From positions 34,177-98,176 of the forward strand of contig CAWFFU010000012.1 in NCBI GenBank assembly GCA_963815215.1: a DNA stretch of 64,000 nt. Reading direction: 5' to 3'. The notes under the pieces were generated by a model that did not search any database, was not told the origin of the DNA, and worked only from the letters and a program-made list of their open reading frames with translations. The stretch is from an uncultured Trueperaceae bacterium (GTDB lineage Bacteria > Deinococcota > Deinococci > Deinococcales > Trueperaceae). Shown piece after piece: positions 1,029 to 51,599 of this stretch. The position numbers were made by a program, and so were the translations under genes. Each line of letters starts with the position of its first letter. Position 1 is the stretch's first letter.

Positions 1029-1034
1029 GCTCCC

Positions 1035-1359: not shown

Positions 1360-1363
1360 GGGT

Positions 1364-2347: not shown

Positions 2348-2393
2348 GCCGCGTCCCGTACGCCACCTCACACATGTCCGAAGGGAGCCAGGC

Positions 2394-4076: not shown

Positions 4077-4241
4077 GGGTGCCGGCGTCCGCCTGAACTC
4101 CGACAACGTTGTCCGGCATACCGACCGGGTTCGCGCAAGGACGCGCGCCCGCTGCCAAGGCCGGGTCGGCCGCATGATGGTGGAGGTGGGACGCGCCCCG
4201 ACGCACGCGGTGCGGGACGCGGACCCCGGAGAGGGGGAGCC

Positions 4242-4997: not shown

Positions 4998-5014
4998 CGG
5001 AGCTCTTCCGCCTC

Positions 5015-5046
5015 ACCAGGACAGATGGACACCAGGACAGATGGAC
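5015..5046. repeat. 16-nt tandem direct repeat x2 (accaggacagatggac)
   Basis: Two exact adjacent copies lie in the convergent intergenic gap. The hairpin CCCGGGA-N8-TCCCGGG follows at 5056-5077. Confidence 0.9.
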
Positions 5047-5102
5047 GCCGGCGGGCCCGGGATGCGATCGTCCCGGGTCCGCCGGCTCGCTATGCGGGGG
5101 TC

Positions 5103-6671: not shown

Positions 6672-6799
6672 GCTCTTCCCTTCCCGAGGCCGAGTTGTGG
6701 TTGCCGTTCACGATAGCAGAAGGACCACGCCGTGCCCGGCCCGGCCTGCACAGATGACGACACGCCGCCGAGGCCGGTCCGCCCGCGCAGGGTCCGACG

Positions 6800-7435
6800 T
6801 CACCAGGTGGCGAGCAGCAGCAGCGCGGCTGCCCGCTCGAGCTTGTTCACGGGATTGGGAGTGAGCTTCACCACCCCGTCGACGGCCTCGGCGATCAACT
6901 CCAGGTCGGCGCGGGGCGTGCCCTCGCCGGCCTCGATCTCGACCTCGTCGAAGTAGGCGCTGCGCTCGGCGCCGGGCGCGCGTGCGGACACGGCGTCGAA
7001 GGCGAGCTGGGCCACCTCGTTGCCGTCGCGCAGCAGCCGGAAGAGAACGCGCGTGGTGTCGAGCTCGACGCCGGGCCGTAGGGCCGCGGGCTCGACGAGC
7101 CCTTCGAGCCGCGCCAGGATGGCGTCGGGCCAGGCGGCGTCCGGGCCGGCGCCCGTTACGGGGAGCTCCAACTCGTCGCGCTCGTGCAGCGCGGCGTCGG
7201 TCGATCCGGCCGACTTGACCCCCGCCAGGGTGGTCCCGCCCAGGCGTCGCCTGCGCAGGGCGATGCCGGCCTGGCGCAGGTGCCCGGCGGGGTCGTCGTA
7301 GTAGAGATCGTGCAGCTCCTGCACGGGCGCGGCCACGGCCTCGAAGGGGGTGGCCGCGAGCGCGGCCCGGAGCTCGCTCAACGACGGCACGTAGGCGTCC
7401 AGCACCGAGAACTTGAGCTCGCGCTCGATGGGCAT
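6800..7435 (-). CDS. CYTH-domain protein (triphosphate tunnel metalloenzyme family)
   Basis: Starts MPIERELKF (ExExK signature) and contains a later FDEVEIE acidic motif. The start is set at 7435 by the leaderless -10. The 37 upstream codons of the ORF are Arg/Gly-rich. Confidence 0.75.
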   Translation of the reverse strand: MPIERELKFSVLDAYVPSLSELRAALAATPFEAVAAPVQELHDLYYDDPAGHLRQAGIALRRRRLGGTTLAGVKSAGSTDAALHERDELELPVTGAGPDAAWPDAILARLEGLVEPAALRPGVELDTTRVLFRLLRDGNEVAQLAFDAVSARAPGAERSAYFDEVEIEAGEGTPRADLELIAEAVDGVVKLTPNPVNKLERAAALLLLATW

Positions 7436-7440
7436 GACCG

Positions 7441-7446
7441 AGTCTA
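7441..7446 (-). promoter_or_regulatory. -10 TAGACT, leaderless-type, for the CYTH gene
   Basis: The minus strand reads TAGACT, then 5 nt, then ATG (7435). Confidence 0.45.
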
Positions 7447-7580
7447 CTTCGGGCCGGGCGGCGCCGGCCGCCCGGCCACCGCGGAGGGGTGGGCCGTCGG
7501 GCGCGCGCGAACGCCGGAAACTATCGTGCCCGACGTGTTGTCGCAAGGGGCAAGCGGCCCTTCGGGAGCGTACCGACCGG

Positions 7581-7589
7581 TGGTATACT
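7581..7589 (+). promoter_or_regulatory. extended -10 TGGTATACT upstream of the EF-G2-like gene
   Basis: A near-consensus TGnTAtAcT lies about 87 nt before the ATG at 7676. Confidence 0.45.
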
Positions 7590-7675
7590 CACCGAACCTA
7601 GGCAGCCGTGCCTGGCTTCATGGACCTCGTGCCCGTGTTCACCGCGCGTACCAGCACGAAAGGAAGCCGATTCCG

Positions 7676-9724: not shown

Positions 9725-9751
9725 CGGGGCGGCCGTGGCTCGCCGCGGGGA

Positions 9752-9777
9752 CGCCGGGGTCCGTGTCGGCCCCGGCG
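9752..9777. terminator. GC-rich hairpin between convergent genes (possible bidirectional terminator, no U-tract)
   Basis: CGCCGGGGTC...GGCCCCGGCG forms a stem of about 10 bp (including one G-U) between the EF-G2 stop and the ccdA stop. Confidence 0.35.
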
Positions 9778-9787
9778 GATGCCGGCT

Positions 9788-10546
9788 CTAGCGCCTCTGG
9801 GGCGTGAGGAGCGGAGCCAGGTTCATGCCGCTGAGGTAGGCCAGGAACGACGGCAGGATGGGCAGCACGCAAGGGGAGAGGAACGACAGGGCGCCGGCCC
9901 CGAAGGCCAGCGCCAGGGTGGGTGCGGCCATGGTGCCGAACAGCGCGCTCTCGGCGCTGCCCAGGTTGGCCAGGTAGGGGGACAGGGCGTTGAGCGCTCC
10001 GGTCAGCAGCAGCACGCCCACGGCGATGAGCAGCACCGCCCCGACCTTCTCGAGCATGCCCGAGTAGCGCCGCAGTGCCCGTGTCGCCGGCAGGAGCTGG
10101 GACAGCGCCAGGAACGGCAGCGAGAAGCCCAGCGAGTAGGCGAACAGCAGGAGCCCGCCCTGGGCCCCGCCGCCGCTGGTGGCCGCGATGCCCAGGATGC
10201 CGGCCAGGATCGGCCCGATGCAGGGCGTCCAGCCCGCGGCGAAGGCGACCCCCACGACCGCCGAGCCCAGGTAACCGCTGGGCTTGCGCATGAGGTGGAC
10301 GCGCAGCTCCTGCTTGAACACGGGCAGCGGCAGCACGTCGAGCATGATGACGCCCATCACCACCAACAGCGCCCCGGCGACGACGCGCAGGACGCCGCCG
10401 TAGGCGAACAGCAGGTGGCTGAGCAGGCCGGCACTGAAGCCCAGCGCCACGAACACGGCCGACAGGCCGGCGACGAAGGACAGGGTGTGCAGCGCCAGGT
10501 GCAGCCGGAGTGGGAGCGCGGCTTCGGCGCTCGCGTCCGCCCTCAC
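9788..10546 (-). CDS. ccdA: cytochrome c biogenesis thiol-disulfide transporter CcdA (DsbD transmembrane family)
   Basis: Polytopic membrane protein with both conserved Cys motifs (FLSPCVLP and GWTPCIGP). The GTG start overlaps a repeat unit. Confidence 0.85.
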   Translation of the reverse strand: MRADASAEAALPLRLHLALHTLSFVAGLSAVFVALGFSAGLLSHLLFAYGGVLRVVAGALLVVMGVIMLDVLPLPVFKQELRVHLMRKPSGYLGSAVVGVAFAAGWTPCIGPILAGILGIAATSGGGAQGGLLLFAYSLGFSLPFLALSQLLPATRALRRYSGMLEKVGAVLLIAVGVLLLTGALNALSPYLANLGSAESALFGTMAAPTLALAFGAGALSFLSPCVLPILPSFLAYLSGMNLAPLLTPQRR

Positions 10547-10598
10547 GATGGTGCCTTCACGATGGTGCCTTCATAGCGGCGCCTTCATAGCGCGGTGA
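10543..10598. repeat. 14-nt tandem repeat x4 spanning the hemC-like stop and the ccdA start
   Basis: Units are tcacgatggtgcct x2 (identical), tcatagcggcgcct and tcatagcgcggtga. Each carries TGA on the minus strand, and the three reading frames are all hit. Confidence 0.85.
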
Positions 10599-11478
10599 GC
10601 TGACTGCGAACGTCCTGCGCGAGCTCCCGGCCCAGCTCGTCGGCTTCCTTGGCCTCGCCGCTGACGCTCGCCTGCAGCGTCGTCTCGCCCCGCAGCACGG
10701 TGCCGAGGAGGGTGAGCTCGCCATCGTCGGTGACGTTGGCCAGCGCGCCGACCACGCACTCCCGGCAGATGTCGTCGCTGTCGGCCGGGCCCTGCCTCAG
10801 GGCGCTGGCGAAGCTGCGCTCGGCACGGACCCGGTCGAAGCTCGGGCGGTGCTGCAGCGAATAGGCCACTTCGAAGGCGAGGTCGTCGTCGGCGCGCACC
10901 AGCAGGCCGAGAGCGCCCTGGCCCGGTGTGGGCGCGAAGGTCTCGGGGTCGAGCACGGTATCGAGCCGGTTGCGGTGGTCCAGGGCGATGAGTGTGGCGG
11001 CCGGGATCAGCAGCCCATCGAGCTCGCCGGACGTGAGCAGCTTCAGGGTCGCCTCCAACGTGCCGGAGACCTCGACCGCCTCGACCGCCAGGTGCTGGCC
11101 CGCCAGGTAGGCGGCGTCACGCGGTGTCAACACCCCGATGCGGGCGCCCTCCGGCAGCTCGGTGAGCGCGCGCGACCCCTTGGTCACCAACGCGGTGCGC
11201 GGGTCCAGGCGCCGGGACACCGCCGCCAGCGTGACCTCCTCGGGGAGCGTCAACGGCAGCGTCTCGAGCTGGGCCACCGCCACCCCGATGTCGCCCTTCA
11301 GCAATGCCTGCAACAGCGGATCGTCCCCGCCACTCGCCTTCGACTCGACGTCCTTGATGGTGCGGAGGGCGAAGTTCACGTCCGGCCACTCGTCCGTCAG
11401 CTGCTCGAGCACATCCCGAGCCTGGCGCAGCGCGAGTGCGCCGTCGCGGTTGCCCAGCACGATTCTTGCCATGGCCAT
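10585..11478 (-). CDS. hydroxymethylbilane synthase (HemC)-like protein, divergent and possibly non-catalytic
   Basis: It has the overall PBGD layout (LALRQA..., PGQGALG). Several residues I recall as essential in E. coli HemC appear substituted. An alternative start at 11472 fits the leaderless -10. Confidence 0.6.
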   Translation of the reverse strand: MAMARIVLGNRDGALALRQARDVLEQLTDEWPDVNFALRTIKDVESKASGGDDPLLQALLKGDIGVAVAQLETLPLTLPEEVTLAAVSRRLDPRTALVTKGSRALTELPEGARIGVLTPRDAAYLAGQHLAVEAVEVSGTLEATLKLLTSGELDGLLIPAATLIALDHRNRLDTVLDPETFAPTPGQGALGLLVRADDDLAFEVAYSLQHRPSFDRVRAERSFASALRQGPADSDDICRECVVGALANVTDDGELTLLGTVLRGETTLQASVSGEAKEADELGRELAQDVRSQLTAL

Positions 11479-11487
11479 GTTGTATCA
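11479..11487 (-). promoter_or_regulatory. extended -10 TGATACAAC, leaderless-type, for the hemC-like gene
   Basis: The minus strand reads TGATACAAC, then 6 nt, then the second ATG (11472). Confidence 0.4.
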
Positions 11488-11562
11488 CACTCTGCGGCCC
11501 CGGCGGATGCGAGAAAACCTCTGTGGAAGGGCATCGGTGGCGCGCCTCAGGACGCTCCCGGA

Positions 11563-12738
11563 TCAGGCGATCGCCAGCGCCTGTTCCTTGAGCTCGTCCA
11601 CCCGATCGGTGCGCTCCCAGGGGAAGCCGTTGCGGCCGAAGTGGCCGTAAGCGCTGGTGGCGGTGTAGATGGGGCGGCGCAGGTCGAGCTGGGCGATGAT
11701 CGAGGCCGGGCGGGCGTCGAACACGCGACCGATGAGGTCTCCGAGGCGGTCGTCGCCCAGCTCGGAGGTGCCGAAGGTGTCGACGTACATGCCCACCGGG
11801 TGGGCAACGCCGATGGCGTAGGCGAGCTGCACCTGGCAGCGTTCGGCCAGACCCGCCGCGACCACGTTCTTGGCGATGTAGCGGGCGTAGTAGCTGGCCG
11901 AGCGGTCGACCTTGGTGGGGTCCTTGCCGCTGAAAGCGCCGCCGCCGTGCGGCACCGCGCCTCCGTAGGTGTCGACGATGATCTTGCGGCCCGTGAGGCC
12001 GGCGTCGGCCTGGGGACCGCCGCGCACGAAGCGGCCGGTGGGATTGACGAGGTAGCGGGTCCGCTCGTCGAGCAGGCCGTCGGGGATCACGGGGCGCACC
12101 ACGTGCTCCTTGACCTCCTCGCGCAGGCGCTCGAGCGTCACGTCGGGATCGTGCTGCGCCGAAACGACCACGGTCCGCACGTGCGTCGCCCGGTCTCCCT
12201 CGTAGCCGAGCGTGACCTGCGCCTTGCCGTCGGGGCGCAGGTAGGGCAGAGTGCCGTCCTTGCGGACCGTGGCCATGCGCTGCGTCAGGGCATGCGCGAG
12301 CATGATCGGCAACGGCATCAGCTCGGGTGTCTCGTGGGTGGCGTAGCCGAACATCAGCCCCTGGTCGCCGGCTCCGACGAGGTCGAAGTCGTCGCCGCTG
12401 TCGGCTTCCTGGGCGCGATCGACGCCCAGCGCGATGTCGGGTGACTGCTCGTTGACCGCGATCAACACCGCGCTGTGATCGGCGTCGATGCCGTAGGACG
12501 CGTCGGTGTAGCCGACCTCGCGCACCGCCTTGCGAACGATCGCCTGGAAGTCGACGTAGCCGTGGCAGGTGATCTCGCCTGCGATGAGGGCCAGGCCGGT
12601 GGTGAGGATCGTCTCGGCAGCCACCCGCGCATATGGGTCCTCGGCCAGGATGGCATCCAGGACGCTGTCACTGATGCGGTCCGCGAGCTTGTCGGGATGT
12701 CCCTCGTTCACCGATTCGGCGGAGATGAGTCTGCGCAC
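11563..12738 (-). CDS. metK: S-adenosylmethionine synthetase
   Basis: ...[20 protein letters not shown]..., [12 protein letters not shown] and [19 protein letters not shown] start at 12738, preceded by GGAGGA. Confidence 0.95.
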
Positions 12739-12924
12739 GCCTGTGTCCTCCAGGGGGAGCCGTGGTAACCGGGCGCGCCCGCTACGGAACGCGCGCCGTT
12801 CGATTCGCCATGCTAGCAGGGCGCGGGCCGGCGCAGCGTGCCGCACGATGGCGTTCCGAGGCGGCGCCTTCGCCGACGCGGGGCGGGCGCCCGGGACGGA
12901 CGTTGCCGCCGCGCGGGACGTGGC

Positions 12925-12930
12925 TATACT
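12925..12930 (+). promoter_or_regulatory. -10 TATACT, leaderless-type, for the GNAT gene
   Basis: TATACT, then 5 nt, then ATG (12936). Confidence 0.5.
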
Positions 12931-12935
12931 CGGGC

Positions 12936-13460
12936 ATGCGGGACACCCACGTGGGGCACGCCATCCGCCGCGCGAACACGGGCGACGCTCACGAGGTCGT
13001 TCGGCTGATGCGCACCATCTACCTCGAGGGCCGCTACTTCGTCGGCGACGGTCCGCCCCAGCCGGAGTCGCTTGCGCGTCGCATCGTCGGGGACGACCCC
13101 GTCCATGCGCTGTACCTGGTGGCGGAGGTCCGGCGCGATTCCGAGCCCGAGCTGGGCGGCTGGCTCGAGCTCCACCGCATGCAGCCGCGTCGGCTGCAGC
13201 ACGTTGCCGTCCTCACGGTGGCGGTGGCGCCCGAGTGGCGCCACCACGGTCTGGGCCGCGGGCTGTTGCGGCGCTGCTACGACTGGGCGCGCGACGTCGG
13301 CGTCGGCAAGGTGAGCCTCAACGTGCGCGCCGGTAATACCGCGGCGATCGCGCTGTACCTCTCCGAGGGGTTCGTCGAAGAGGGGCGCGAGCGCGCTCAG
13401 GTACGCACCGACGAAGGGGAGTTCGAGGACAACGTGATCATGGGGCGCTGGGTCGTGTGA
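12936..13460 (+). CDS. GNAT-family N-acetyltransferase
   Basis: 174 aa. Acetyl-CoA motif A: [17 protein letters not shown]. The ORF-track N-terminal 58 codons were removed. Confidence 0.75.
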
Positions 13461-13526
13461 GACCCGGCCGTGCGTGGCGGGCCGGACCGGGACCGTGGCG
13501 CGGCTGCGCGCCGCGCGGCCCTCGCC

Positions 13527-13532
13527 TAGACT
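13527..13532 (+). promoter_or_regulatory. -10 TAGACT, leaderless-type, for the NYN gene
   Basis: TAGACT, then 6 nt, then ATG (13539). Confidence 0.5.
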
Positions 13533-13538
13533 GGCGTC

Positions 13539-14093
13539 ATGGCTGACCCGATTCCCGCCGCCGCGGCGCGGCCCGGCGTGACGGCCCCCGCCGCACGCGT
13601 CGCCCTGTTCGTCGACACCCAGAATCTCTACTACGCCGCCCGCGACGGCTACGACGCGAGCGTCGACTATCAGCGCCTGCTCGATCTGGCGCTGCGCGGC
13701 CGCGAGCTCGCATCCGCCACCGCCTACGTGGTGGAGCGCGAAGGGGACAGCACGGCCTTCGGCTTCGTCACCAAGCTCTCCGCCCTGGGGTTCCGTGTGC
13801 GGCGCCGCAGCGTGCGGGTGCACCGCACCGACGAGGGCGGCGGCACCGTCATGGAGGGCGACTGGGACATGGGCATCGCCGCCGACATGGTGCGGTCGCT
13901 GCCCTACGTCGAGGTGCTGGTGCTGGGCTCCGGCGACGGCGACTTCGTGCCCATGCTGGAACTCGCCCAACAGCGCGGCGCCCGGGTGGAGGTGCTCGCC
14001 TTCCGTGAGGCCGCCGCTCAGACCCTCATCGATCTCGCCGACCGCTTCACCCACCTTCCGGACGAGCCCGGCGTCTTCGTACGCAGGTCCTGA
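13539..14093 (+). CDS. NYN-domain (LabA/DUF88-like) protein
   Basis: VALFVDTQNLYY... and ...VLVLGSGDGDFVPMLELAQQRGARVEVL match the NYN/LabA pattern (from memory). Confidence 0.7.
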   Translation: MADPIPAAAARPGVTAPAARVALFVDTQNLYYAARDGYDASVDYQRLLDLALRGRELASATAYVVEREGDSTAFGFVTKLSALGFRVRRRSVRVHRTDEGGGTVMEGDWDMGIAADMVRSLPYVEVLVLGSGDGDFVPMLELAQQRGARVEVLAFREAAAQTLIDLADRFTHLPDEPGVFVRRS

Positions 14094-41389: not shown

Positions 41390-44300
41390 TCACGGCCCCG
41401 AGGCGCGCACGGCCAGGTGGCCCTGTGCGAGCTGTTTCCCGTCGGCCAACAGCGTCGCGGTGAAGGTTCCGGCCTTCGCCGGCGCCAGCATCGTACCCGT
41501 GAACGCGCCCGGGCCCGTCCGCGTGAGGGCCGTGGAGGTGCCCTGGAGCCTGACGTCGACATGCGCTGCCTTCACCAGCACGTGGGCTTCCACGCTGACG
41601 CGCTCGCCCGGGGTGGCGAAGCCGGGCGTGAGGGTGAGGGTGGCCAAGGGTCCCGAAGTGACGATCACCGTCTCGTCCTGCGTGACGCTGTGCTTGGCGC
41701 TGCGTGCCGTGATCTGGAGCGTCTCGGCGCCGTCCGAGGCGTGACGGCCGTGGCGATGAGGCAGGGGCGGCAGCGTGACCGTGCCCTGGAAGCGTCCACC
41801 ACCGAGCGGGCTCAGGGCGACGCTCGGACCGTTCGCCCAGCGGGCGTTGACGCCGGACGCGCCGGGTGCCGTCGCCGTGATCGTGAGCTGCGCGCCAGAG
41901 GGCGCCGTGGAGGGTGACACCCGGGCGTGCAATGCGAGCGACCCGGCGGTGAGCGTGGTCGTCACGACGGTCTGGGGCGGGGTGACGCCGAGCTCGACCG
42001 ACGGTGCGCTGTTGGCAGGGCCGAGGTCGACGCTCACGGAGCGCAGGTTCGGGTGGTAGCCCGCGGGGAGGCTGCGCTGCACCAGCGCGAGCAGGTAGTG
42101 GCCGGGGGCGAGCCCGTTGAAGACGAAGTCTCCGCTGGCATCGGTATCGGTGGAGCGCTGCTCGCCGTTGGGCCCGGAGAGCTGTACCGTCACGAAGGTG
42201 AGGCCCCTGGACTGTGCAGTCGGGTGCCGGCTGCCCGGCGCGGCGCTGTACACCTGACCGGACACGCTGAAGCTGCGCTTCACGACGATCGTGGTGGTGG
42301 TCGTGCGGTGAAGCCGCACGGTGACGCGGGGCGAGCCGACGACGGTGAGATCGAGTGGCAGGTTCGCGAGCTGTAGTGCAGTGGTGCCCAGTGGCAGCCG
42401 GAGCGTGAAGTCACCATGCTGATCGGTGCGCGCCTGGCGGTTGGCCGCGGCCGCCACGACCAGCACCCCCGGCAGGCCCTGAGCGCCGGAGGCGGTGTGC
42501 AGGACGACGCGGCCGTGCACGGTGCCGAGGCGGAGGCCGCCGAAGGCCGCCACCACCGACGGCGGGACCTGGAGCCCCGACAGCACGTCCGCGCTGAGCC
42601 CCACGCGGTACGTGACGGCATGGTTGGGGTCGACGCCTACCGTTCCCTGCAGGGCGATCGCGTGCGTGAGCTGGTAGCTGAGCTGGGCGTTGCCGAACAG
42701 GCGTCCGGTTGCCGTCTGGTAGTCCAGCGTCACTCCGGTGGCGACGGGACCGAGGTGAAGGCCGCCGTGTGCGTCCACCACAGGCTCCACGGGTGTGGAG
42801 ATCGGCGCCGAGGTGCCGGCGCCGATGCTGAAGCCGTTCCCGACATAGGTCTCGTCGAGCGACGCGTTCCACCCCCCCGCTTCGGTGACTCCTACCCGGG
42901 TCACCCAGGGGAGCGGGGCGACCACGGTGAACAGGCTTCCCGAGAGTTGGACGTGTCCCTGTTCGAGCTGGCCCCGGATCGAGGTCCGGACGCTGCCCAG
43001 GTGCCCGGGTATCAGGTATACGACCGAGAAGTGGCCGGAGCCGGCGCGCAGGTCGCCGGTCGCGGTGTAGCGAGCATGCTGGCTCGTGACGACGGCGGGG
43101 CCGAGCGTCTCGTACACCGACAGGGTGCCGTTCGACCCCTTCGGAGTCACGGTGGCGCTCGCGCCGAAGCCGATGGGACGGATCGCCTGGCTGTAGAGAT
43201 CGAGCGTCGCTTGCCACGGTTCCGACCCGCGGGGCGTGTAGACGCCGCCCACATCGCCCAGCAGCCCGATCCCCGACCCCTGCAGGGTGGCACCCACCAG
43301 GGGTCCGACAAGGTAGCCGCTGGGCGAGTTCTGGCCCGTGACGCCCACGTGTCCGGTGACCTGGAGCCAGGGGGTCAAGGGAGCGACGTACGAGACGGAG
43401 AGCGCGTCGGTCGACGGGTTCGTCCACGCGTGGTCGTAGGCGACGTTGAAGGCTCCGACGGTGTAGCCGACGCCGGTCCTGAGCGCCCCGGAGGCCGAGG
43501 TCGCCAAGGTCCCCGAAACGCCGCGATACCTGCCCGTCAGGTCCTGGCCTCCGAGGGGCTGATAACGGTACGAGACGCTCCAATCGTTGCCCAGCAGGCC
43601 GACGTGGCCTCCGACGCCGCCGCTGTAGGAGACCCCGCTGTCCGTGCGGACGAAGTCGGACAGACTGCCGCGGATGCCGGCGCTCGCCCGGGCCTCGAGG
43701 CCGGTGGTGCCGTAGGACACGGAGAAGGGAAGGTTCAGGTCGAGGAGCGGAGCCGAGGGGTCCGCGCCGGGGAAGGGCAGGACGTCGTAGTCGTAGACGA
43801 GTCGCTGGTCGTAGGAACTTCCTATCGCGGCGGCGGTCACGATGGCGACGCGATGCCCGAAGGCGCGTGGGGTCACCTGGAGGCGCGCCGTCCCTGAGGT
43901 TCCGGGAGCCAGGTGAAGGTGCCCCGGTGCGACACTCGCCGAGTCCTCGCCGCTGACCGACAGCGCGAAGGTCTCAGGCGCATTGCCCTGGTTGACCAGG
44001 GTCAGGGTCGTTTCGAACGACGTGCCGGCCACCGCGGCCACCGGCGGTGGAGAGCCGTGCAGCGTGGCCTGCAGGACCGTAAGCACGACGATCGTGACGG
44101 TGGTGCTGGCCGTCACGGTGCCCGCATGGTTCAGGGTCACCTGGACGCGATGCGGGCCCGCCCGCGCGGAGGGGTCGACCAGGACCGTTGCCAGCAGCTG
44201 TCCGCGCTCTTGCGCGCTCGTCCCCAGCGCGGTCAGGCCGGTGGCCGGGTGGAGTTCGACCGTCCCCGGACCGTGCGTGCGAAGGGGGATCGCGACCACG

Positions 44301-44431
44301 TCCCCCGGCATCGCCGGCGCGAGGCGGCCCGCGCCGATGGACGCCGCCTTCGCCGGCGGCCCCAGGAGGCTGCCAAGGACGGCGATGACGGCGACCGCCA
44401 GCGTGCGCCATCCGTTGCGGCCCGGGATCAT
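41390..44431 (-). CDS. large secreted multidomain beta-rich protein 'D' (1013 aa), possibly an usher/porin-like or surface-layer component
   Basis: The true start is MIPGRNGWRTLAVAVIAVLGSLLGPPAKAAS (signal peptide), with ATGA overlap onto gene C. N-terminal Ig/CARDB-like domains (TLTLVNQGNAPETFALSV) are followed by about 400 aa of Gly/Ser/Thr/Tyr-rich alternating beta-strand sequence. Two CarboxypepD_reg/Cna-B-like units follow (...TDQHGDFTLRLPLG..., ...TDASGDFVFNGLAPGHYLLAL), then C-terminal Ig-like domains. Confidence 0.6.
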   Translation of the reverse strand: MIPGRNGWRTLAVAVIAVLGSLLGPPAKAASIGAGRLAPAMPGDVVAIPLRTHGPGTVELHPATGLTALGTSAQERGQLLATVLVDPSARAGPHRVQVTLNHAGTVTASTTVTIVVLTVLQATLHGSPPPVAAVAGTSFETTLTLVNQGNAPETFALSVSGEDSASVAPGHLHLAPGTSGTARLQVTPRAFGHRVAIVTAAAIGSSYDQRLVYDYDVLPFPGADPSAPLLDLNLPFSVSYGTTGLEARASAGIRGSLSDFVRTDSGVSYSGGVGGHVGLLGNDWSVSYRYQPLGGQDLTGRYRGVSGTLATSASGALRTGVGYTVGAFNVAYDHAWTNPSTDALSVSYVAPLTPWLQVTGHVGVTGQNSPSGYLVGPLVGATLQGSGIGLLGDVGGVYTPRGSEPWQATLDLYSQAIRPIGFGASATVTPKGSNGTLSVYETLGPAVVTSQHARYTATGDLRAGSGHFSVVYLIPGHLGSVRTSIRGQLEQGHVQLSGSLFTVVAPLPWVTRVGVTEAGGWNASLDETYVGNGFSIGAGTSAPISTPVEPVVDAHGGLHLGPVATGVTLDYQTATGRLFGNAQLSYQLTHAIALQGTVGVDPNHAVTYRVGLSADVLSGLQVPPSVVAAFGGLRLGTVHGRVVLHTASGAQGLPGVLVVAAAANRQARTDQHGDFTLRLPLGTTALQLANLPLDLTVVGSPRVTVRLHRTTTTTIVVKRSFSVSGQVYSAAPGSRHPTAQSRGLTFVTVQLSGPNGEQRSTDTDASGDFVFNGLAPGHYLLALVQRSLPAGYHPNLRSVSVDLGPANSAPSVELGVTPPQTVVTTTLTAGSLALHARVSPSTAPSGAQLTITATAPGASGVNARWANGPSVALSPLGGGRFQGTVTLPPLPHRHGRHASDGAETLQITARSAKHSVTQDETVIVTSGPLATLTLTPGFATPGERVSVEAHVLVKAAHVDVRLQGTSTALTRTGPGAFTGTMLAPAKAGTFTATLLADGKQLAQGHLAVRASGP

Positions 44432-45012
44432 GGCGCAGCGCTCGAGAGGATCCAGCGTAGCGCCCCGCGGTAGTGGCCGGGTGCCGCCCCCGCTCCCCAC
44501 GACCACCGCAGGCGTACGCGCAGCCGGCACACACCGGGGCCGTGGAGCACGGCCACGCGCGAGCCTTCCCCGACCGATCGCCATCCCGAGCCCTGACATC
44601 CCGGGGGACCGGGGGACCCGATGGTCTGGGTGGCGTAGCGGACGTCCGTGGCCGGGATGGACGCACCCGTCACCGCATCGATGATGTCGGCCACCATCCG
44701 CACGCTCAGGACGTAGGGTCCGGATGCCGGTAGGTCCGCGACCAGCGTGAACCGGCCGCCTTGCGGCGGTAGCCGTGCCGGTCCCTGCGGGGTCGGGGTC
44801 GACCCGGGCGTGGGCACGAAGTCGACCGTGCCCGAGGCCGGCGCGCCGAGGGAGAGCGAGGCGGGTGCCGGCGTAGGCACGGCAGCCGAGCCGCCAGGGG
44901 TCGGTGCCGTGGGCCCGCCGGTGGCTCCCACCCACGAGGTGAGCGCGGCCATGACGAGGACCAGCGCGGCTGTCCTGGCGTGCCCGTTGCCGGTGGCGGC
45001 GTCCTCCCTCAT
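44428..45012 (-). CDS. secreted small subunit-like protein 'C' (194 aa)
   Basis: Signal peptide (ARTAALVLVMAALTSWVGA), a Pro/Thr-rich linker and a beta domain of about 110 aa ending APGHYRGALRWILSSAAP. High GC3 in this frame. The overlapping long frame is Arg/Gly/Pro junk. Confidence 0.55.
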   Translation of the reverse strand: MREDAATGNGHARTAALVLVMAALTSWVGATGGPTAPTPGGSAAVPTPAPASLSLGAPASGTVDFVPTPGSTPTPQGPARLPPQGGRFTLVADLPASGPYVLSVRMVADIIDAVTGASIPATDVRYATQTIGSPGPPGCQGSGWRSVGEGSRVAVLHGPGVCRLRVRLRWSWGAGAAPGHYRGALRWILSSAAP

Positions 45013-45028
45013 GGGTCCGCGCCCCCCA

Positions 45029-45922
45029 TCAATGCACCGTCAACTGCGCCTGACCAGCGATCTCGCTGGAGCTCCCGTCCTTGAGGAGCGATGTCGCGAG
45101 GTAGGTCCCCGGCTCGAGCGGTGGCGTGACGGGCACCGCCAGATCGCGGGCTGAGCCGGGGAGCGAGGCGACGGTCTGCACCTTGTAGGTATGAACGAGC
45201 TTGCCGTCGAGGGACCTGACCTCGATCCGGCCGTGCACGACCAGAAGCTCGTTACCGGTGTTCTGGAGGGCGATGTCGAAGTTCGGCGGGGCCTGGCTCC
45301 TGGCGCCCTTGAGCGTGAGGCTCTGGATCGATGCGGAGGGCGACGGCGTGCCTACGTTCAGGTACAAGATGTAGGCGTCTTGCGCGACGAGCGACAGGCC
45401 GATCCCGTTCTTCGAGAGGGCTTTGGGCTTCGACCCGGCAGAGCGGAACACGATGGCCGACCAGTGGGTTCCTGACTTGGCCTGTTTGGGCACGCTGGCC
45501 CGGTAACGGACGCTGGCCGAGGCGCCGCCGGCAAGCGTCAGGCTGTGCTCGCTCAGGCTCAGCCACGGTGCCGCCGAGGTCGGGAGGCTCCCGCTCGGGA
45601 GGATCAGTAGCCGACCGGAGGCCTTGATGGTGAAGTCGGCCGGGAAGATGCTGATGGTGAGCTTCGACTGGGTCGGATTCGTGATCGTGATCTTGCCGAT
45701 GACGTGCGATCCCGGCTGCACGCTGCGCTCGAGGTTGACCGGGCTGATCTGCACGGCGGACTGGGCGGACGCGGCCGTGATGAGCACCAGCGACAGCACG
45801 ACGAGCACGGCCGCCTCGAGGCGTGCTCGTGGACGTCTCGTCCGAGGGGGAATCGCGCCCGTGCGGGCTGCCCGTTGGAACGGGCAGCCCGCGGCGCGAG
45901 GGAGGTCGCGCACTCTCTCCAC
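45029..45922 (-). CDS. secreted two-domain beta-sandwich protein 'B' (chaperone-like; PapD-like or DUF916/DUF3324-like)
   Basis: Signal peptide ...AAVLVVLSLVLITAASAQS. The N-terminal strand pattern VQISPVNLERSVQPGSHVIGKITITNPTQSKLTISI is followed by a second Ig-like half (...NFDIALQNTGNELLVVHGRIEV...). GTG start. Confidence 0.55.
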   Translation of the reverse strand: MERVRDLPRAAGCPFQRAARTGAIPPRTRRPRARLEAAVLVVLSLVLITAASAQSAVQISPVNLERSVQPGSHVIGKITITNPTQSKLTISIFPADFTIKASGRLLILPSGSLPTSAAPWLSLSEHSLTLAGGASASVRYRASVPKQAKSGTHWSAIVFRSAGSKPKALSKNGIGLSLVAQDAYILYLNVGTPSPSASIQSLTLKGARSQAPPNFDIALQNTGNELLVVHGRIEVRSLDGKLVHTYKVQTVASLPGSARDLAVPVTPPLEPGTYLATSLLKDGSSSEIAGQAQLTVH

Positions 45923-45930
45923 CTTTCAGC

Positions 45931-46761
45931 TCACGACCCTGAGGGCGTCGGGACCGAGTCGGCGAGCGTATAGGTGGCCTGCAAGGCGTAGGAGCCCGGC
46001 TGGGCGCTCTGCAGCCACAGCCACTGGCTGACGTTGTCGTCGTAGAAGTTGCCGGGCTGGATGCTCGCCAACGGGTACGAGTTACTCGCGTCGGCCGTGG
46101 TGATCCAGCCCGTGCTCTGCGTTCCGCCCATGGGGGTGCCGTTGAGGCTCGTCGCGTCCGTGGCTTCGAAGGCGCCGTAGCCCGTGGGTGCGCTCATGGT
46201 GGAGTCGCCCGGCAGGTCCATGGGCTGGAGCGTCATGGTGAAGCTCGCACCGCTCGGGCAGTTGGTGTACTTCTCGACGAGGAAGGGGTTGTTGCACACC
46301 ACGTTGCCCTTGGCCGGCGATCCGGAGATGTCGGTGCCGCCGAAGCTCAGGTAGGGGCTCCCCGACGCTCCGCCCGCGTACGCGTTCACGACTTGCTGCC
46401 AGGTCTCGACCTTACCGCTGTTGCTGAAGACCGCCGGGTACCCGGGGGCGGCGATGAGGCCGCCGCCGCCCGATTTCTCGGCGGCCGCGATGAAGGTGTT
46501 CAGCTGGCTCTGGCTCACCTGGTTGGGGATGGCGTAGCAGTTGCTGCTACTGCCGAGGGCGTTGTTCAGGTTGAGCGACCAGGTGCTCACGCCACCCAGA
46601 CTGTTGTCGAGTACCAGCTTGAGCACGGGCGGGACGGTGAGGTTGATGTTCTGGGTGACCGACGTCGAGCCGCTCGAGCAGGTCGGCGAGGCGCAGGCGA
46701 AAGCGGCGCCGGCAGCGGTGAAGCCAACGGCGAGGAGGCCGAGGGTCAGGAGTCGTTTCAT
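45931..46761 (-). CDS. secreted Asn/Ser/Thr/Gly-rich subunit-like protein 'A' (276 aa)
   Basis: Signal peptide MKRLLTLGLLAVGFTAAGAAFA, five Cys, and a C-terminus QPGSYALQATYTLADSVPTPSGS. The ATG at 46761 has the RBS AGGAAGAAGG. An alternative ATG lies at 46779. Confidence 0.6.
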   Translation of the reverse strand: MKRLLTLGLLAVGFTAAGAAFACASPTCSSGSTSVTQNINLTVPPVLKLVLDNSLGGVSTWSLNLNNALGSSSNCYAIPNQVSQSQLNTFIAAAEKSGGGGLIAAPGYPAVFSNSGKVETWQQVVNAYAGGASGSPYLSFGGTDISGSPAKGNVVCNNPFLVEKYTNCPSGASFTMTLQPMDLPGDSTMSAPTGYGAFEATDATSLNGTPMGGTQSTGWITTADASNSYPLASIQPGNFYDDNVSQWLWLQSAQPGSYALQATYTLADSVPTPSGS

Positions 46762-46879
46762 GGAAGCCTTCTTCCTCATGGACTAGCGCACGTGGGTGGA
46801 TCTGCCGTTCGGTGGGAGTCGCGATGGACGATCGGGCAGGTGCTCACCTCCTCTCCGACGCGAACCGCGAACCATGCAG

Positions 46880-46885
46880 ATGCTA
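46880..46885 (-). promoter_or_regulatory. candidate -10 (TAGCAT) for the A-B-C-D operon
   Basis: The minus strand reads TAGCAT about 120 nt upstream of the gene A start. An ACGAG repeat occupies the -35 slot. Confidence 0.35.
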
Positions 46886-46904
46886 GGTGGCGGCACGTTG
46901 CCGC

Positions 46905-46929
46905 CTCGTTCCACTCGTCTCACGCTCGT
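46905..46929 (-). promoter_or_regulatory. three direct repeats of ACGAG (minus strand; CTCGT on plus), candidate SARP-like activator sites
   Basis: CTCGT occurs at 46905-46909, 46914-46918 and 46925-46929, so the spacings are 9 and 11 nt. The repeats read gACGAGc, gACGAGt and aACGAGg. The proximal copy overlaps the -35 position of the TAGCAT promoter. Confidence 0.4.
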
Positions 46930-46992
46930 CTGCGGCGGGTCTCATGGCGTCGACCTACGATGCTGGGCGTTACGGGTACCCGGGGGTAACGC

Positions 46993-48813
46993 ATGAGCAA
47001 CGTCTCGCACAACGCCTCAGCAAGGCTCGTGCTAACTGGAGAAGCTGCACTCGAGGTCGGAGGTCGACGCGTTCACGTGCGTCGGAAAGGGCTCGCGCTG
47101 TTGGCCTACCTGGCGCTCGATGGGCCGGCGCGGCGCGAAGCGCTGGCCGATCTCCTGTGGGGGACCGAGCACGGACGCGGCAATCTTCGGGTCGAGCTCC
47201 GGCGTCTCAACGTGGCGTTCGGCCGCGACCTCCAGGGGCGTGGCGCCGACCCGCTCGACCTACCGGGCTGGCTCGAGGTACGCATCGGGGGGTCCCCGCA
47301 CGACTTCCTGCGCAGCATGGAAGACCTCACGCCCCGCTTCGACGAGTGGCTGGTCATCCAGCGCGAGCGGATGGCTGCCGAGGCGGGACCGTTCGACGGG
47401 ACCCACGCCTGGGTGGACAAGCTCGCCGCGCTGATCCCGGCCGCGGCCGTCGTCTTGCTGCGAGTCACGCCCGCCACGGATGGGCGTGCCGAGGCGCAGG
47501 TGCTGGCGACGGCCTTGAGGCGGCAACTCCTCGAAGGCGCCGAGGAGGGCGGGCGGCCCTCGGTCCGGCTGTTGCCGCCGCCGTTCGACGACGGCCAGGC
47601 GCGCGCCGTGGCGCGCGACGCCGAGAACACCTGGGTGGTGCCCCTGCCGGCGTACGGCGAGGAGCCGCTGTGTGTGCTCGAGATGCGTTCGATGCTGCGC
47701 CCGGAGAGGCTCTTCGAGGTGGAGGTGCCGCCGCTTGGCTGGGCGGAAGCCCGCAAGGGCGTGCTGAGCGGACTTCCCTTCGAGCGGGCGGCGCCCATCT
47801 ACCTGCAGAGCGGCGGCAACGCCGGGTTCCTTGCCGAGCTCATGGAGTCGGGCCCGGACGTCCTGCCCCCGCGCATCCATGCCGCCTACATGTGGGAGGC
47901 TCGCCACGCCTCCCTGGAGGCGAGGCTCGCGCTCGAGCGCCTCTCGGTCCATCCCGGCCCGCTGCCCTGGTCGCTCATCGAGGTCTTCGAGGCGCAGGCG
48001 AGCCTGGACGAGCTCGAGAGGCGAGGCTGGCTGGCTTTCGACGCGGGCTGGAGGTTCGCCGATCCCGTAGCCCGCCGCGTGGTCGACCTCGGACTCCAAC
48101 CCGGCCGCAGGCAGCACTCCCACCTCCTCGCCGGGGAGGCCCTGGAGCGCGAGGGGCTCGCCCTCGCGGCCCTCTACCACCGGCGCGAGGCGGGCGGTTC
48201 GGTCGACTGGGAGGGCGTGGAGGCCCGCCTCACCCCGTGGGCGCGCCAGGCGCTTCGCGTGTACAGGCACGGCGCGGCCGCCCCGATGCCGGAGGTCGGT
48301 TCGGTCGGGTGGGATCCTCCCGGGCCGCCGCTCGTCACCGGAGCGGAGATGGCGTTGCTGGAAGAGCTCCGGTACGGAGGTGCGATCTACGGCGACGGGG
48401 CGAGCTGGTCGATCGTTCGCACCGGTGGCGAGGCGTCGGCAACCGGCGCGGTGTTCGAGACGCCGCGCGAACCTCTCGTGCTCCACGTCCGGGGCCGGGG
48501 CTTCGTCGACAGCCCGCTGAACGTGGGGCTCGACGGCGAGTCCGCGGCGCTGTCGCTACGTCACGACGGCGTCCTACGCGCCGTGTTCGTCGCTGGCCTG
48601 CGCGCGCCCGCGGTCATCGATGGCGTGTCGGTCGTACCTCTGGGAACACCGTTCGAGACATGGCTACGGCTCGAACCGGGCAGCCGGCTGCGCGTGGAGA
48701 GCAGCGCGCTGATGGCGATCATCGAGATGGAGATGGCGATCTACCGGCATGGGGCCGGGGAACGCGAGCGCACCGGCCGCCAGGACCGGGCGTGGGGCGC
48801 TACCGGTGTGTGA
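46993..48813 (+). CDS. SARP/BTAD-like transcriptional regulator with a large uncharacterised C-terminal region
   Basis: 606 aa. The N-terminus ...VHVRRKGLALLAYLALDGPARREALADLLWGTEHGRGNLRVELRRLN... followed by ...RFDEWLVIQRERM... matches the OmpR-type wHTH plus BTAD start of the AfsR/DnrI/RedD family (from memory). I saw no Walker motif. Confidence 0.6.
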   Translation: MSNVSHNASARLVLTGEAALEVGGRRVHVRRKGLALLAYLALDGPARREALADLLWGTEHGRGNLRVELRRLNVAFGRDLQGRGADPLDLPGWLEVRIGGSPHDFLRSMEDLTPRFDEWLVIQRERMAAEAGPFDGTHAWVDKLAALIPAAAVVLLRVTPATDGRAEAQVLATALRRQLLEGAEEGGRPSVRLLPPPFDDGQARAVARDAENTWVVPLPAYGEEPLCVLEMRSMLRPERLFEVEVPPLGWAEARKGVLSGLPFERAAPIYLQSGGNAGFLAELMESGPDVLPPRIHAAYMWEARHASLEARLALERLSVHPGPLPWSLIEVFEAQASLDELERRGWLAFDAGWRFADPVARRVVDLGLQPGRRQHSHLLAGEALEREGLALAALYHRREAGGSVDWEGVEARLTPWARQALRVYRHGAAAPMPEVGSVGWDPPGPPLVTGAEMALLEELRYGGAIYGDGASWSIVRTGGEASATGAVFETPREPLVLHVRGRGFVDSPLNVGLDGESAALSLRHDGVLRAVFVAGLRAPAVIDGVSVVPLGTPFETWLRLEPGSRLRVESSALMAIIEMEMAIYRHGAGERERTGRQDRAWGATGV

Positions 48814-49579: not shown

Positions 49580-49935
49580 GCCGCCTCGCCCGGCGGCTGC
49601 TGACGGCGCCGATCCGCTTCTATCGGCACTTCCTCTCGCCTCTCAAGGGCGCGCCGAGCTGCCGTTTCCACCCCACCTGCAGTGCCTACGCCATCGAGGC
49701 GATCGAAGTGCACGGCGTCTTCAAGGGCAGTTACCTCGCCGTGCGCCGCGTGTTGAAGTGCCACCCCCTGCACCCCGGCGGATTCGACCCGGTCCCGCCG
49801 CGCCCGCCGGCGCGTAGCGACCGACGCCGGCGAGAGTCCGCGAGCTTCGCCCCGCGGCTGCTGTCCGACCCATGGGCCGACGGGCTCGAGCGACCGGCAC
49901 GGCCGCGCACGGAGACTCCCACGGAGGCATCTTGA
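49576..49935 (+). CDS. yidD: membrane protein insertion efficiency factor YidD (with a Pro/Arg-rich C-terminal tail)
   Basis: ...[28 protein letters not shown].... GTGA overlap with the rnpA stop. Confidence 0.85.
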
Positions 49936-51599
49936 AGACCGCTCGCTCTTTGACCCTGGCGCTGCTCCTGTTCGCGGCGCTCGTTTCCGGCGTGGCGCAA
50001 GCGCGCATCGTCTTCGGCGCCAGCGACTTCAACGTCTCGGACTTCAAGAACCTCGATAAGGTCACCGCGACCTGCAAGACGGCCGATCCGTCGTTCCTGT
50101 GCCGATTGCAGGACGCCACCCTCACGCGCATCCCCACCAAGGGGGTCGATCTGTTCTTCGACGGCGCCGGCGAGTTGGTGGCGGCCTACGCCAAGCCCCA
50201 GAAGGGGCAGACGTACAACGACTACCCCATCGACCGCCGGCAGAACCTGATCCCCTTCGGGTCCGGCGTGCCGGGCGGCGCGGTCTTCATCGACGGGGCC
50301 TACGACGTGCCGCAGGACCCCAGCGGGAGCTGGCAGCGCACCAGCAAGACCGAGTTGGTGGGGACCTTCCACTTCCGTGCGGGCGCCTACCAGGTCGAGC
50401 GGGTGGTGACGGTGAGCGCCGTCCGCGAGCACATCAACGTCCAGGTGAGCGTGCAGCCGGCGCAGGGGGCCGGTGCGGCCGCCGGCACCGCCACGTCTGG
50501 CACTGCCACGTCCGGCACTGCCACGTCCGGCGCCGCCACGTCCGGCGCCGCCACCTCCGGCACTGCCACCTCCGGCGCCGCGACGACGGCTCCGAGCGGC
50601 GGCGCGCAGCCGACCGTCGCGATCGTCACCCCCGGGATCGCCGGCACCGCCAGTCCGGTGGCGAAGATCGGTCACGGCTCGGACTTCACGCTCGCCCCGC
50701 CGGCGGGCAAGAGCTACCCGGACCCCACCTACGCGTCGTTGCAGAACAACAACAACAACAACGGCGACGCCATCGTGCTGCGCCCGGTGCAGGGCGCGCA
50801 GAACGTCCAGGCCGAGTACCTGCAGCCCGATCGGGTGGCGCTGGTGAAGCCGATCGGGGCAGACGGGCACGCCTCGTTCCAGGTCCAGTACTACACCGGC
50901 AAGAACGAGCTGGTGCGGTACTACCAGGAGGGCTACCTGGGTCTTCCCGGCCTGTTCCGGCCCAACATCCTGGGTCGGCTGTCGCTGTACATCGTCCAGC
51001 TCCTGGTCTTCATCCACAAGTATGTGGGCAGCTGGGGTCTCGCGATCATCGTGCTGACGCTGATCTTCCGCGCGCTGATCTGGCCTCTCATCGCCACCCA
51101 GACCAAGTCGATGTTCGGCATGCAGAAGCTGCAGCCCAGGATCAAGGAGCTGCAGGGCAAGTACAAGGACGATCGCGAGAAGCTGACGCAGGAGACCATG
51201 AAGCTGTACCAGGAAGCGGGCGTGAATCCCGCCGGCGGCTGCCTGCCGATCCTGTTGCAGATGCCGCTGTTCATCATCCTGTGGCGCGTGTTCGTCAACT
51301 TCGAGTTCAATCAGGGATTCCTGTGGCTGCCGGACCTGGGGCAGTCCGACCCCTTCTATATCCTGCCCGTGCTGTACGTGCTCGTGATGCTGGCCACGTC
51401 CTACTTCTCGGCCCGCGGGAACCCCCAGACGTTGCGGCAGTCGATGTTCATCAACTTGATCTTCGTCTTCGTCATCATCAACTTCCCTGCCGGGGTGCTG
51501 CTGTACTATGTGGTATCCATGCTGGTGCAGGTGTTCCAATACTGGCTGTTGAGCCGCAACCAACCCGTGGTGGCGGTGCCCGCCAAGCGGGTGAAGTGA
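49932..51599 (+). CDS. yidC: membrane protein insertase YidC
   Basis: The TTG start overlaps the yidD TGA and gives the signal/anchor [24 protein letters not shown]. The C-terminal 60-kDa-IMP core is [19 protein letters not shown]...[14 protein letters not shown]...[14 protein letters not shown]. Confidence 0.9.
50484..50588 (+). repeat. 15-nt in-frame tandem repeat x7 inside yidC (encodes [10 protein letters not shown] pentapeptides)
   Basis: Seven units from ggcaccgccacgtct through ggcgccgcgacgacg. The peptide is [35 protein letters not shown]. Confidence 0.9.
50745..50762 (+). repeat. (AAC)6 microsatellite inside yidC (encodes NNNNNN)
   Basis: aacaacaacaacaacaac, an AT-rich trinucleotide run that is unusual in this GC-rich sequence. 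Confidence 0.95.

Follow-up and report, generated by a model that had tools for sequence, protein, structure and literature searches.

A conserved module of four predicted secreted proteins, including a WxLIP homologue, with a divergent regulator in an uncultured Trueperaceae bacterium

Organization of the locus

We analyzed a stretch of 64,000 nucleotides from contig CAWFFU010000012.1 of an uncultured Trueperaceae bacterium (hereafter, the window), in which four packed minus-strand genes, designated A, B, C, and D, lie divergently from a fifth gene, designated R. The analysis identified protein B as a homologue of the WxL-interacting protein (WxLIP) and revealed that the five genes stay linked even between deeply diverged lineages. 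The module is composed of the following genes:

R, 46993..48813, plus strand: 606 aa, divergent from A; predicted N-terminal OmpR/SARP-type winged helix at approximately residues 1–130 and a large conserved C-terminal part
A, 45931..46761, minus strand (open reading frame 45931–46779, coding from the second ATG at 46761): 276 aa, predicted secreted, Asn/Ser/Thr-rich, with conserved cysteines; putative client or subunit
B, 45029..45922, minus strand: GTG start, 297 aa at most; predicted secreted WxLIP (DUF916+DUF3324) homologue with two immunoglobulin (Ig)-like domains and a PapD-chaperone-like fold
C, 44428..45012, minus strand: 194 aa, predicted small secreted beta protein; putative second client or adaptor
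D, from ATG 44431 within the open reading frame 41390–44935, minus strand: 1013 aa

A first-pass annotation, made from the sequence alone, had described the same compact arrangement, and its positions were confirmed: the gap between A and B is 8 nt (45923–45930), the gap between B and C is 16 nt (45013–45028), and C and D overlap in an ATGA (44428–44431). The second ATG of A at 46761 is preceded by the ribosome-binding site AGGAAGAAGG, and the 1013-aa product of D is the same in length and sequence as the database protein P0001. The signal peptides that had been claimed for all four products were judged by eye and found in each of them as a hydrophobic stretch near the N terminus with small residues after it (..LLAVGFTAAGAAFA in A, ..VLVVLSLVLITAASAQ in B, ..ALVLVMAALTSWVGA in C, and ..LAVAVIAVLGSLLGPPAKA in D). 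The claimed lack of enzyme motifs also held, with no enzyme family matched by A–D in Pfam and NCBIfam. As had been stated, A is rich in Asn, Ser, and Thr, which together make up 29% of its residues, against 17–21% in B–D, 8% in R, and 8–16% in five neighboring proteins.

Protein B is a homologue of WxL-interacting proteins

Protein B had been described as two beta-sandwich halves resembling both DUF916-type and PapD-like proteins, and both resemblances were recovered. A profile of 60 B-family sequences matched EfmWxLIP1 of Enterococcus faecium (PDB 9i25_C and 9i1y) with an E value of 8.3e-10 over both domains, positions 36–266 of the profile aligning to positions 23–261 of chain 9i25_C. The next relevant profile match was the chaperone EcpB, with an E value of 0.04. 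For the single sequences, the signal was weaker: B of the window matched Pfam WxLIP_PGBD (DUF916) with E = 0.14, which is under the Pfam threshold, and had no match to Pfam PapD, while WxLIP_PGBD touched 21 of the 60 family members (best E 3.9e-8) and PapD_N touched one (E 0.009). The AlphaFold2 (AF2) model of B (262 aa, 60-sequence alignment) consisted of two sandwiches, with a predicted local distance difference test score (pLDDT) of 94.5 and a predicted template modeling score of 0.86. In a Foldseek search of this model against the PDB, the top three matches were WxLIP structures (E 5e-12 to 2.5e-11, template modeling score (TM) 0.51–0.56), followed by CfaA, CsuC, YadV, FimC, DraB, Caf1M, and PapD (E 1e-10 to 1e-6, TM 0.4–0.6). 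The two domains of B also aligned with each other in hhalign after removal of the signal peptides (56%, E 1.1e-4). The profile, AF2, and Foldseek results indicated that both resemblances are real and that the one to WxLIP represents homology. Thus, B was identified from its profile match as a full-length homologue of WxL-interacting proteins, predicted to be Sec-exported and anchor-less, and its model shows the two-Ig-domain fold of the PapD-like pilus chaperones.

The B protein stops right after domain 2 (..AGQAQLTVH) without a C-terminal transmembrane helix, and almost every one of the 16 aligned relatives does likewise. When a 9-sequence profile was run exhaustively with HMMER, 12,823 cluster representatives of the family were returned at E<=1e-3; 4,593 of them passed E<=1e-10, and 91 passed E<=1e-30. 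Most of these proteins are secreted, about 260–300 aa long, and nameless in the source databases; a few are labeled there as “DUF916 domain-containing protein” or “P pilus assembly chaperone PapD.”

A single long stretch of the B model has no secondary structure:

B F1–G1 loop, 45383..45439, minus strand: residues 127–145 of the 262-aa model; putative counterpart of the WxLIP hairpin

These 19 residues have lower pLDDT values (77–91) than the rest of the model and align with residues ~124–150 of EfmWxLIP1. In the WxL systems, the WxLIP hairpin inserts as a strand and completes the WxL sandwich (PMC10599100), and the title of PDB entry 9i25 names a “WxLIP ... bound to long WxL.” By analogy, the F1–G1 loop of B may serve as a strand-inserting hairpin.

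The start of B is uncertain. The 35 aa before the hydrophobic core (window positions 45818–45922, ..R.xGCPFRRAAR..) are kept only in close relatives; either the true start lies further downstream, or the extension is an unusually long, clade-specific n-region.

Conservation and genomic settings of the module

The A-B-C-D order, in most cases with R next to it, was kept in no fewer than six divergent lineages and at least three genomic contexts, so the arrangement is not due to chance. The gene order was retained down to about 20–28% identity, in Deinococcales, Thermaceae metagenome-assembled genomes (MAGs), Deinococcus megaplasmids, and further metagenomic lineages. The proposed co-conservation of the gene set with its regulator was borne out.

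Close homologues of D (60–89% identity) occur in Deinococcales MAGs whose flanking genes match those of the locus. On one side of the module lies a catabolic/ABC operon of the amino-acid type, which is under a GntR regulator and has PALP and OCD genes at its end, and on the other side lies the rpmH-rnpA-yidD-yidC-jag block. The accessory-island look that had been attributed to the locus was therefore only partly upheld. Locally it is weak, and a recent local island was ruled out, since four relatives have the same flanking genes. On a longer timescale the module is mobile, as it has been found elsewhere in genomes and on plasmids and is duplicated in one MAG. In Thermaceae MAGs, R|A-B-C-D with a distant B (36–40% identity) occupies another locus, between UDG and GTP cyclohydrolase I. 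The MAG binchicken_co129_876 carries two paralogous R-A-B-C-D modules, in which the identity to B of the window is 82% in one copy and 39% in the other, and two further contigs (L018 and L020) carry the module at about 28% B identity. Contig L036 (GCA_003564455.1) holds two adjacent modules at 456–13731, with a 235-aa paralogue of A and four C-like paralogues, among them a tandem C-C protein of 316 aa; at the edge of the contig lies a second D-like gene. This expansion of the small-subunit family fits a variable-client role. In addition, B adjoins a D-like protein on a Limnochordales-like contig.

The module was also found on megaplasmids of four cultured strains, namely Deinococcus psychrotolerans S14-83, Deinococcus sp. 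NW-56, Deinococcus sp. AB2017081, and Deinococcus sp. D7000. There the genes are annotated as “hypothetical protein,” except for D of strain AB2017081, which is annotated as a carboxypeptidase-like regulatory domain-containing protein. In a non-circular test, family hidden Markov models (HMMs) were built without the plasmid sequences and then run on the four plasmids. The A homologues were recovered with E values of 1e-17 to 4e-47, the C homologues in three of the four plasmids with 7e-6 to 8e-9, and the D homologues across the core with 1e-61 to 1e-99. The regulator was recovered over its N-terminal ~130 aa only. The same test confirmed the module genes in L036. The tblastn searches with A and with the D core gave no match on the plasmids, and a fused A+C+D profile run against a set of 5.8 billion proteins returned only the D of the query itself.

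Proteins A and C share a WxL-like terminal motif

The C-terminal motif reported to be common to A and C was found in both proteins as Y-x3-hydrophobic-x-[W/Y]-x-L-x3-4-P-COOH, at the very end of the chain. The C terminus of C reads PG-x-Y-x3-L-x-W-x-L-x3-4-P-COOH, with a G-x-W-x-L-x-V segment about 87 residues upstream of it, and that of the A family reads (L/A)-T-Y-T-L-x4-P (TYTLxxxxP). Brinster et al. (2007) reportedly gave the distal motif of WxL proteins as YxxxLTWxLxxxP. Two WxL motifs are spaced roughly 68–106 residues apart in that family (PMC9772566), and the motifs of A and C resemble WxL, at the motif level, at both positions. The alignment of the A family also revealed conserved cysteines, a conserved N-terminal strand s-V-T-Q-x-I/V-N-L-x-V/L-P (sVTQxINLxVP), and a central F-x-V-E/Q-K-Y/F-T/S-N...[F/W/Y]-x-[L/V] segment. 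We therefore describe A and C as putative small secreted beta proteins that are genetically coupled to a WxLIP homologue and have WxL-like terminal motifs. An S-layer protein was also considered and was ruled out, the sole signal being a 9.5-bit PACE-CTERM match.

Protein D is a multidomain beta protein

The description of D as a large beta-rich multidomain protein was supported, and four regions were delimited:

D N-terminal Ig pair, 43784..44344, minus strand: residues 30–216, two Ig-like (CARDB/NEW3-like) domains, AF2 pLDDT ~75–85
D core, 42524..43783, minus strand: residues 217–636, 420 aa, Gly/aromatic-rich, predicted all-beta
D transthyretin-like pair, 41930..42523, minus strand: residues 637–834, two CarboxypepD_reg / SdrD-B-like domains
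D C-terminal Ig pair, 41390..41929, minus strand: residues 835–1013 and the stop codon, AF2 pLDDT ~70–85

The N-terminal Ig pair had weak Pfam matches to Cep192_D3 and FixG_C. In hhalign it matched domain 1 of B with 93% and the C-terminal Ig pair of D with 92%; the two Ig pairs are thus homologous to each other and to B domain 1, so that B-like modules flank the core of D on either side. The transthyretin-like region matched Pfam CarboxypepD_reg (E = 3e-8) as well as CarbopepD_reg_2 and SdrD_B, as in 8 of 8 family members, and SdrD in the PDB (1.7e-13). No sorting signal (LPXTG, PEP-CTERM, or a transmembrane segment) was visible at the C terminus on reading of the sequence.

The core contains 16% Gly and 8.1% aromatic residues, the latter against 3.3% in the flanks, has no hydrophobic helix, and is kept across the family (HMM E = 1e-69 in L036). 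In distant homologues it ends in beta-signal-like strands (..VGYELAVGF, ..GYGLRIPF, ..LSIEGGF), which are followed by an invariant linker P-x2-V-V/I-x2-F-G-G (PxxVVxxFGG). Foldseek on the low-confidence D model was uninformative, returning only generic multi-Ig matches (TM ~0.1), and the D-core profile run against the PDB found no usher and nothing meaningful. On balance, we consider it about equally probable that the core is or is not an outer-membrane beta-barrel.

The regulator R and the R/A intergenic region

The gene R was kept beside the operon in six of the compared contigs, with 36–42% identity across clades. It had been called SARP-like, a designation that stands for its position and its putative N-terminal winged helix and not for family membership. 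The first ~130 residues carry a K-G-LALLAYL...R..LA.LLW...NLRVEL.RL signature, and a 9-sequence profile of this region gave one PDB match, the winged-helix DNA-binding domain of PmrA/BasR, in register over the recognition helix (E = 0.04). One plasmid homologue of the regulator matched Trans_reg_C with an E value of 0.17. Pfam gave no match for R of the window or for its family, and a PDB profile search with R returned nothing meaningful. The putative winged helix of R has in common with the AfsR/DnrI-type SARP/OmpR activators its N-terminal position and the K-x-LALLAYL...LLW...NLRVEL-x-RL signature, and R, like them, is divergent from its presumed target operon. Unlike in SARP proteins, a BTAD domain was detected neither in R and 5 homologues (E<=10) nor in three Deinococcus plasmid regulators, and the C-terminal part of ~470 aa is an orphan. 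Because the BTAD domain is absent, R is not regarded as a member of the SARP family.

The regulators on three Deinococcus plasmids are 735–748 aa long, have a weak AAA_16 match, and have only the N-terminal winged helix in common with R. In strain NW-56, a BTAD-annotated fragment lies near the module, beside insertion sequence elements.

Longer plasmid regulators and BTAD fragment: L029, 14496–14975; L034, 13072–15318; L035, 13078–15321
R/A intergenic region, 46762..46992: 231 bp, presumed promoter/operator

In a close relative, this region has 87% identity to the sequence of the window, a distance at which the comparison is uninformative. A consensus scan of it detected no sigma-70-like promoter and no terminator-like site.

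Proposed function and comparison with known systems

The homology of B, its putative hairpin, the conserved gene order, a cluster order that matches the canonical one, the WxL-like endings of A and C, and the signal peptides of A–D together with their lack of enzyme families led us to interpret R|A-B-C-D as an envelope-assembly module, namely, a Deinococcota-type, diderm version of the WxL/WxLIP (Csc) clusters that would work by strand complementation. We give this interpretation about an even chance of being correct. According to it, B would bind A and/or C in the periplasm, and its long F1–G1 hairpin would insert as an extra beta-strand into the A/C sandwich; this is proposed because WxLIP acts in this way on WxL, and the chaperones of chaperone-usher systems act so on pilins. 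Protein D would be the envelope platform, with the 420-aa core placed as a beta-barrel in the outer membrane and the Ig-like and transthyretin-like domains projecting on either side, where they would receive or display the A/C-B complex. The regulator R would activate the divergent operon via its N-terminal winged helix. Rather than an enzyme pathway, the module would yield a stoichiometric complex at the surface or in the envelope that serves adhesion, substrate capture, or wall attachment; a surface appendage may be supposed.

Comparison with the Firmicute WxL/WxLIP clusters (Csc; locus A SwpA-DufA/WxLIP1-LwpA of E. faecium, cscA-D of Lactobacillus plantarum) demonstrated that they share with the module the homology of B to WxLIP over both domains, a layout of a small secreted protein, a WxLIP-like protein, and a large multidomain beta protein with a helix-turn-helix regulator nearby, secreted products, and, in A and C, an ending that resembles the distal WxL motif. 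Whereas the Firmicute clusters encode at least two proteins with a C-terminal WxL domain, A and C reach no WxL family threshold. In addition, the regulator belongs to another type, as yet unclassified, and the hosts are diderms, as are the Deinococcales and the Thermaceae in general, and not monoderms with exposed peptidoglycan.

Several results weigh against the interpretation as a diderm WxL/WxLIP variant. B lacks the transmembrane helix that defines the Firmicute WxLIP, no LPXTG protein was found at any of the module loci, and D has no counterpart in WxL clusters, having the putative 420-aa barrel core in place of a C-terminal WxL domain. The barrel itself is suggested by composition; it is put forward as a conjecture because the AF2 run on D with six close sequences failed for the core (pLDDT ~22 for residues 217–636), and neither Pfam Usher (PF00577) nor other outer-membrane families matched D and its homologues (8 scanned, E<=1). 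The assignment of a DNA-binding domain to R is weak, the E value of its match being marginal. The interactions, location, and phenotype attributed to A–D are drawn by analogy from related families.

A further counterpoint concerns A and C. Alone or as families they had no match in Pfam, NCBIfam, or the PDB; in particular, Pfam WxL (PF13731) matched neither A nor C nor 8 homologues of A, and the WxL chains of the PDB gave none either. For a more sensitive comparison, a WxL reference was built from annotated Firmicute plasmid clusters and the Actinobacterial neighbors of DUF916 genes, and the hhalign comparisons were repeated with trimmed signal peptides, the untrimmed scores being inflated (88% for B vs C). 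With trimming, the positive control, the Actinobacterial small proteins against Firmicute WxL, reached 90% (E 1.5e-6), and C against Firmicute WxL reached 22% (E 1e-3). Across the hhalign runs, the alignment of C to the WxL domain was collinear, with E values of 5e-4 to 1e-3 and probabilities of 22–32%. The score of C against domain 1 of B was higher (58%, E 1e-4), which suggests that the shared PGxY hairpin may be generic to Ig-like sandwiches. Protein A scored below 3% against WxL (E 0.017–0.05), and, with trimming, below 6% against WxL, C, or the Actinobacterial small proteins (E 0.007–0.034), over the C-terminal hairpin only. The WxL HMM ranked members of the C and A families at the top of 1,451 six-frame open reading frames; this is weak evidence, because all E values were above 0.2 and the background consisted mostly of out-of-frame reading frames. 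Thus, the resemblance of A and C to WxL proteins that had been pointed out earlier did not amount to demonstrable homology at this level of comparison, and their membership of the family is not established.

The location of the components bears on another explanation, an envelope tether or scaffold, in which A, B, and C would bind periplasmic peptidoglycan and connect it with an outer-membrane D, stabilizing the thick Deinococcus-type envelope. In diderms, Sec-exported soluble proteins default to the periplasm, the site of peptidoglycan; exported soluble A–C would do the same, and no signal for sorting to the surface is visible in them. The homology of the N-terminal Ig pair of D to B domain 1 also agrees with this explanation, as does the description of the WxL domain and the N-terminal domain of WxLIP (DUF916) as peptidoglycan-binding (PMC9772566, PMC10599100). 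However, the binding in these papers rests largely on prediction and docking, and the homology of A and C to WxL is unproven. Moreover, the module is accessory (plasmid-borne, duplicated, and patchy), unlike an expected core tether, and its own activator suggests conditional expression. We regard a tether as distinctly improbable.

The chaperone-usher pili, both archaic (Csu; CsuC, usher CsuD) and alternate (CFA/I; CfaA), are the second group of systems to which the module can be compared. As in these systems, B has the same two-Ig fold with a long F1–G1 loop and is predicted to be soluble and of the periplasmic type, and small subunits, a chaperone-like protein, and a beta protein of ~1000 aa with terminal beta-sandwiches are encoded together. 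Unlike in them, the window proteins fall outside PapD_N/C, Usher, SCPU, and Fimbrial by sequence, and the D core is shorter than the barrel and plug of an usher. Membership in the archaic Csu/SCPU group, which had been considered earlier, fails at the sequence level and was ruled out, because A–D of the window have no SCPU, Usher, or PapD match. The earlier remark that the cluster is not cleanly described by the Csu template or by the Firmicute Csc one is accurate.

A true fiber-forming pathway of a chaperone-usher-like kind could nevertheless be imagined, with B as a transient chaperone, A as the major and C as a minor or tip subunit, and D as a novel usher. Subunits A and C would polymerize by donor-strand exchange via the N-terminal strand of A and pass through the D barrel. 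The fold of B matches CfaA, CsuC, FimC, Caf1M, and PapD (E 1e-10 to 1e-7, TM 0.45–0.58), its sequence gives faint signals to EcpB and PapD_N, and, like the chaperones of these systems, it is soluble and anchor-less. The best-conserved part of A is the N-terminal strand with its alternating residues, V-T-Q-x-I-N-L-x-V-P; the layout of D, with N-terminal beta domains, a central beta core, and C-terminal beta-sandwiches, parallels that of an usher; and the order of subunit, chaperone, subunit, and large protein resembles Csu-type operons. Against this, no match to Usher, PapD_N/C, SCPU, or Fimbrial was found in the window proteins, 8 D homologues, and 8 A homologues (SCPU and Fimbrial being absent from A, C, and the A homologues), and by sequence B lies much nearer to WxLIP (8e-10) than to the chaperones of chaperone-usher systems, which score 0.04 or higher. 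To judge from the title of PDB entry 9i25, the WxLIP complex is stable rather than transient, an incomplete Ig fold of A or C is not in evidence, and the D core has no confident model. A fiber pathway is therefore unlikely in our estimation.

The third group, the Actinobacterial DUF916 clusters (Streptomyces, Arthrobacter, Clavibacter, and Cellulosimicrobium plasmids; four contigs, L030–L033), encode a B-like protein (tblastn E 1e-6 to 4e-4), with a small secreted protein directly upstream and a large secreted one downstream of the B-like gene. In contrast to A and C, the small partners in these clusters can be shown, as a family, to be WxL homologues (90% in hhalign; the Streptomyces one also matched Pfam WxL with E 0.008), and none of them carries a WxL annotation. 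Their DUF916 proteins, at 320–351 aa, are longer than B, and the large partner, unlike D, is of the LamG/GH43 or WD40-like type. These clusters provide a bridge, and we count them in favor of a diderm WxL/WxLIP variant.

The same clusters bring up nutrient capture or uptake, with D as an outer-membrane channel having carbohydrate- or ligand-binding beta-sandwiches and A and C as substrate-binding partners, in analogy to SusCD-like pairs or to the Csc clusters, for which a role in the use of plant polysaccharides has been proposed. Giant LamG or GH43 proteins lie alongside in the Cellulosimicrobium and Clavibacter clusters, the DUF916 genes thus adjoining GH43 and LamG proteins; the Csc clusters of L. 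plantarum were proposed for carbohydrate utilization (title of PMC1534035); and the CarboxypepD_reg domains of D are like the N terminus of SusC-type receptors (weak match to 9hfj). On the other hand, in none of the contexts seen are the Deinococcota modules flanked by glycoside hydrolases, transporters, or sugar regulators, and D has no TonB box, plug domain, or match to a TonB-dependent-receptor family. An uptake function thus appears very improbable.

Under the interpretation as an envelope-assembly module, the known kind to which it would belong is the mainly Firmicute WxL system (PMC9772566, PMC10599100); it has one solid homologue of a described component and would differ in its three orphan partners and its diderm setting. 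More than 91% of the WxL sequences are found in Firmicutes (PMC9772566), and in the literature searched we found nothing linking DUF916/WxLIP to Deinococcota. WxL and WxLIP have so far been treated as a mainly Firmicute feature of the peptidoglycan surface; here an anchor-less WxLIP homologue lies in an operon of diderm Deinococcota, together with orphan partners and a protein of ~1000 aa that is possibly membrane-embedded, and the family of B is almost entirely unnamed. If B inserts strands like its relatives, the module would offer a testable entry to the assembly of surface complexes of the Deinococcus/Thermus type, and it bears on a common origin of WxLIP and the pilus chaperones. Experiments are feasible, because the module is present on plasmids of four Deinococcus strains that are in culture. 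It is also conceivable, if doubtful, that a WxLIP-type chaperone (B) hands WxL-like A and C to a new outer-membrane barrel platform (D), which would make the module a third branch of strand-complementation systems. Such a branch would link the monoderm WxL clusters evolutionarily with the diderm chaperone-usher pili and would be represented by thousands of unannotated metagenomic proteins of the B family.

Other observations in the window

The Rfam scan of the window (1–64000) at gathering thresholds detected no RNA family. Within yidC (49872–51599, plus strand), a 15-nt tandem repeat with 6.9 copies was observed at 50482–50585. It encodes (T/A)ATSG pentapeptides in the periplasmic domain of YidC; an insert of such low complexity is unusual for a core gene.

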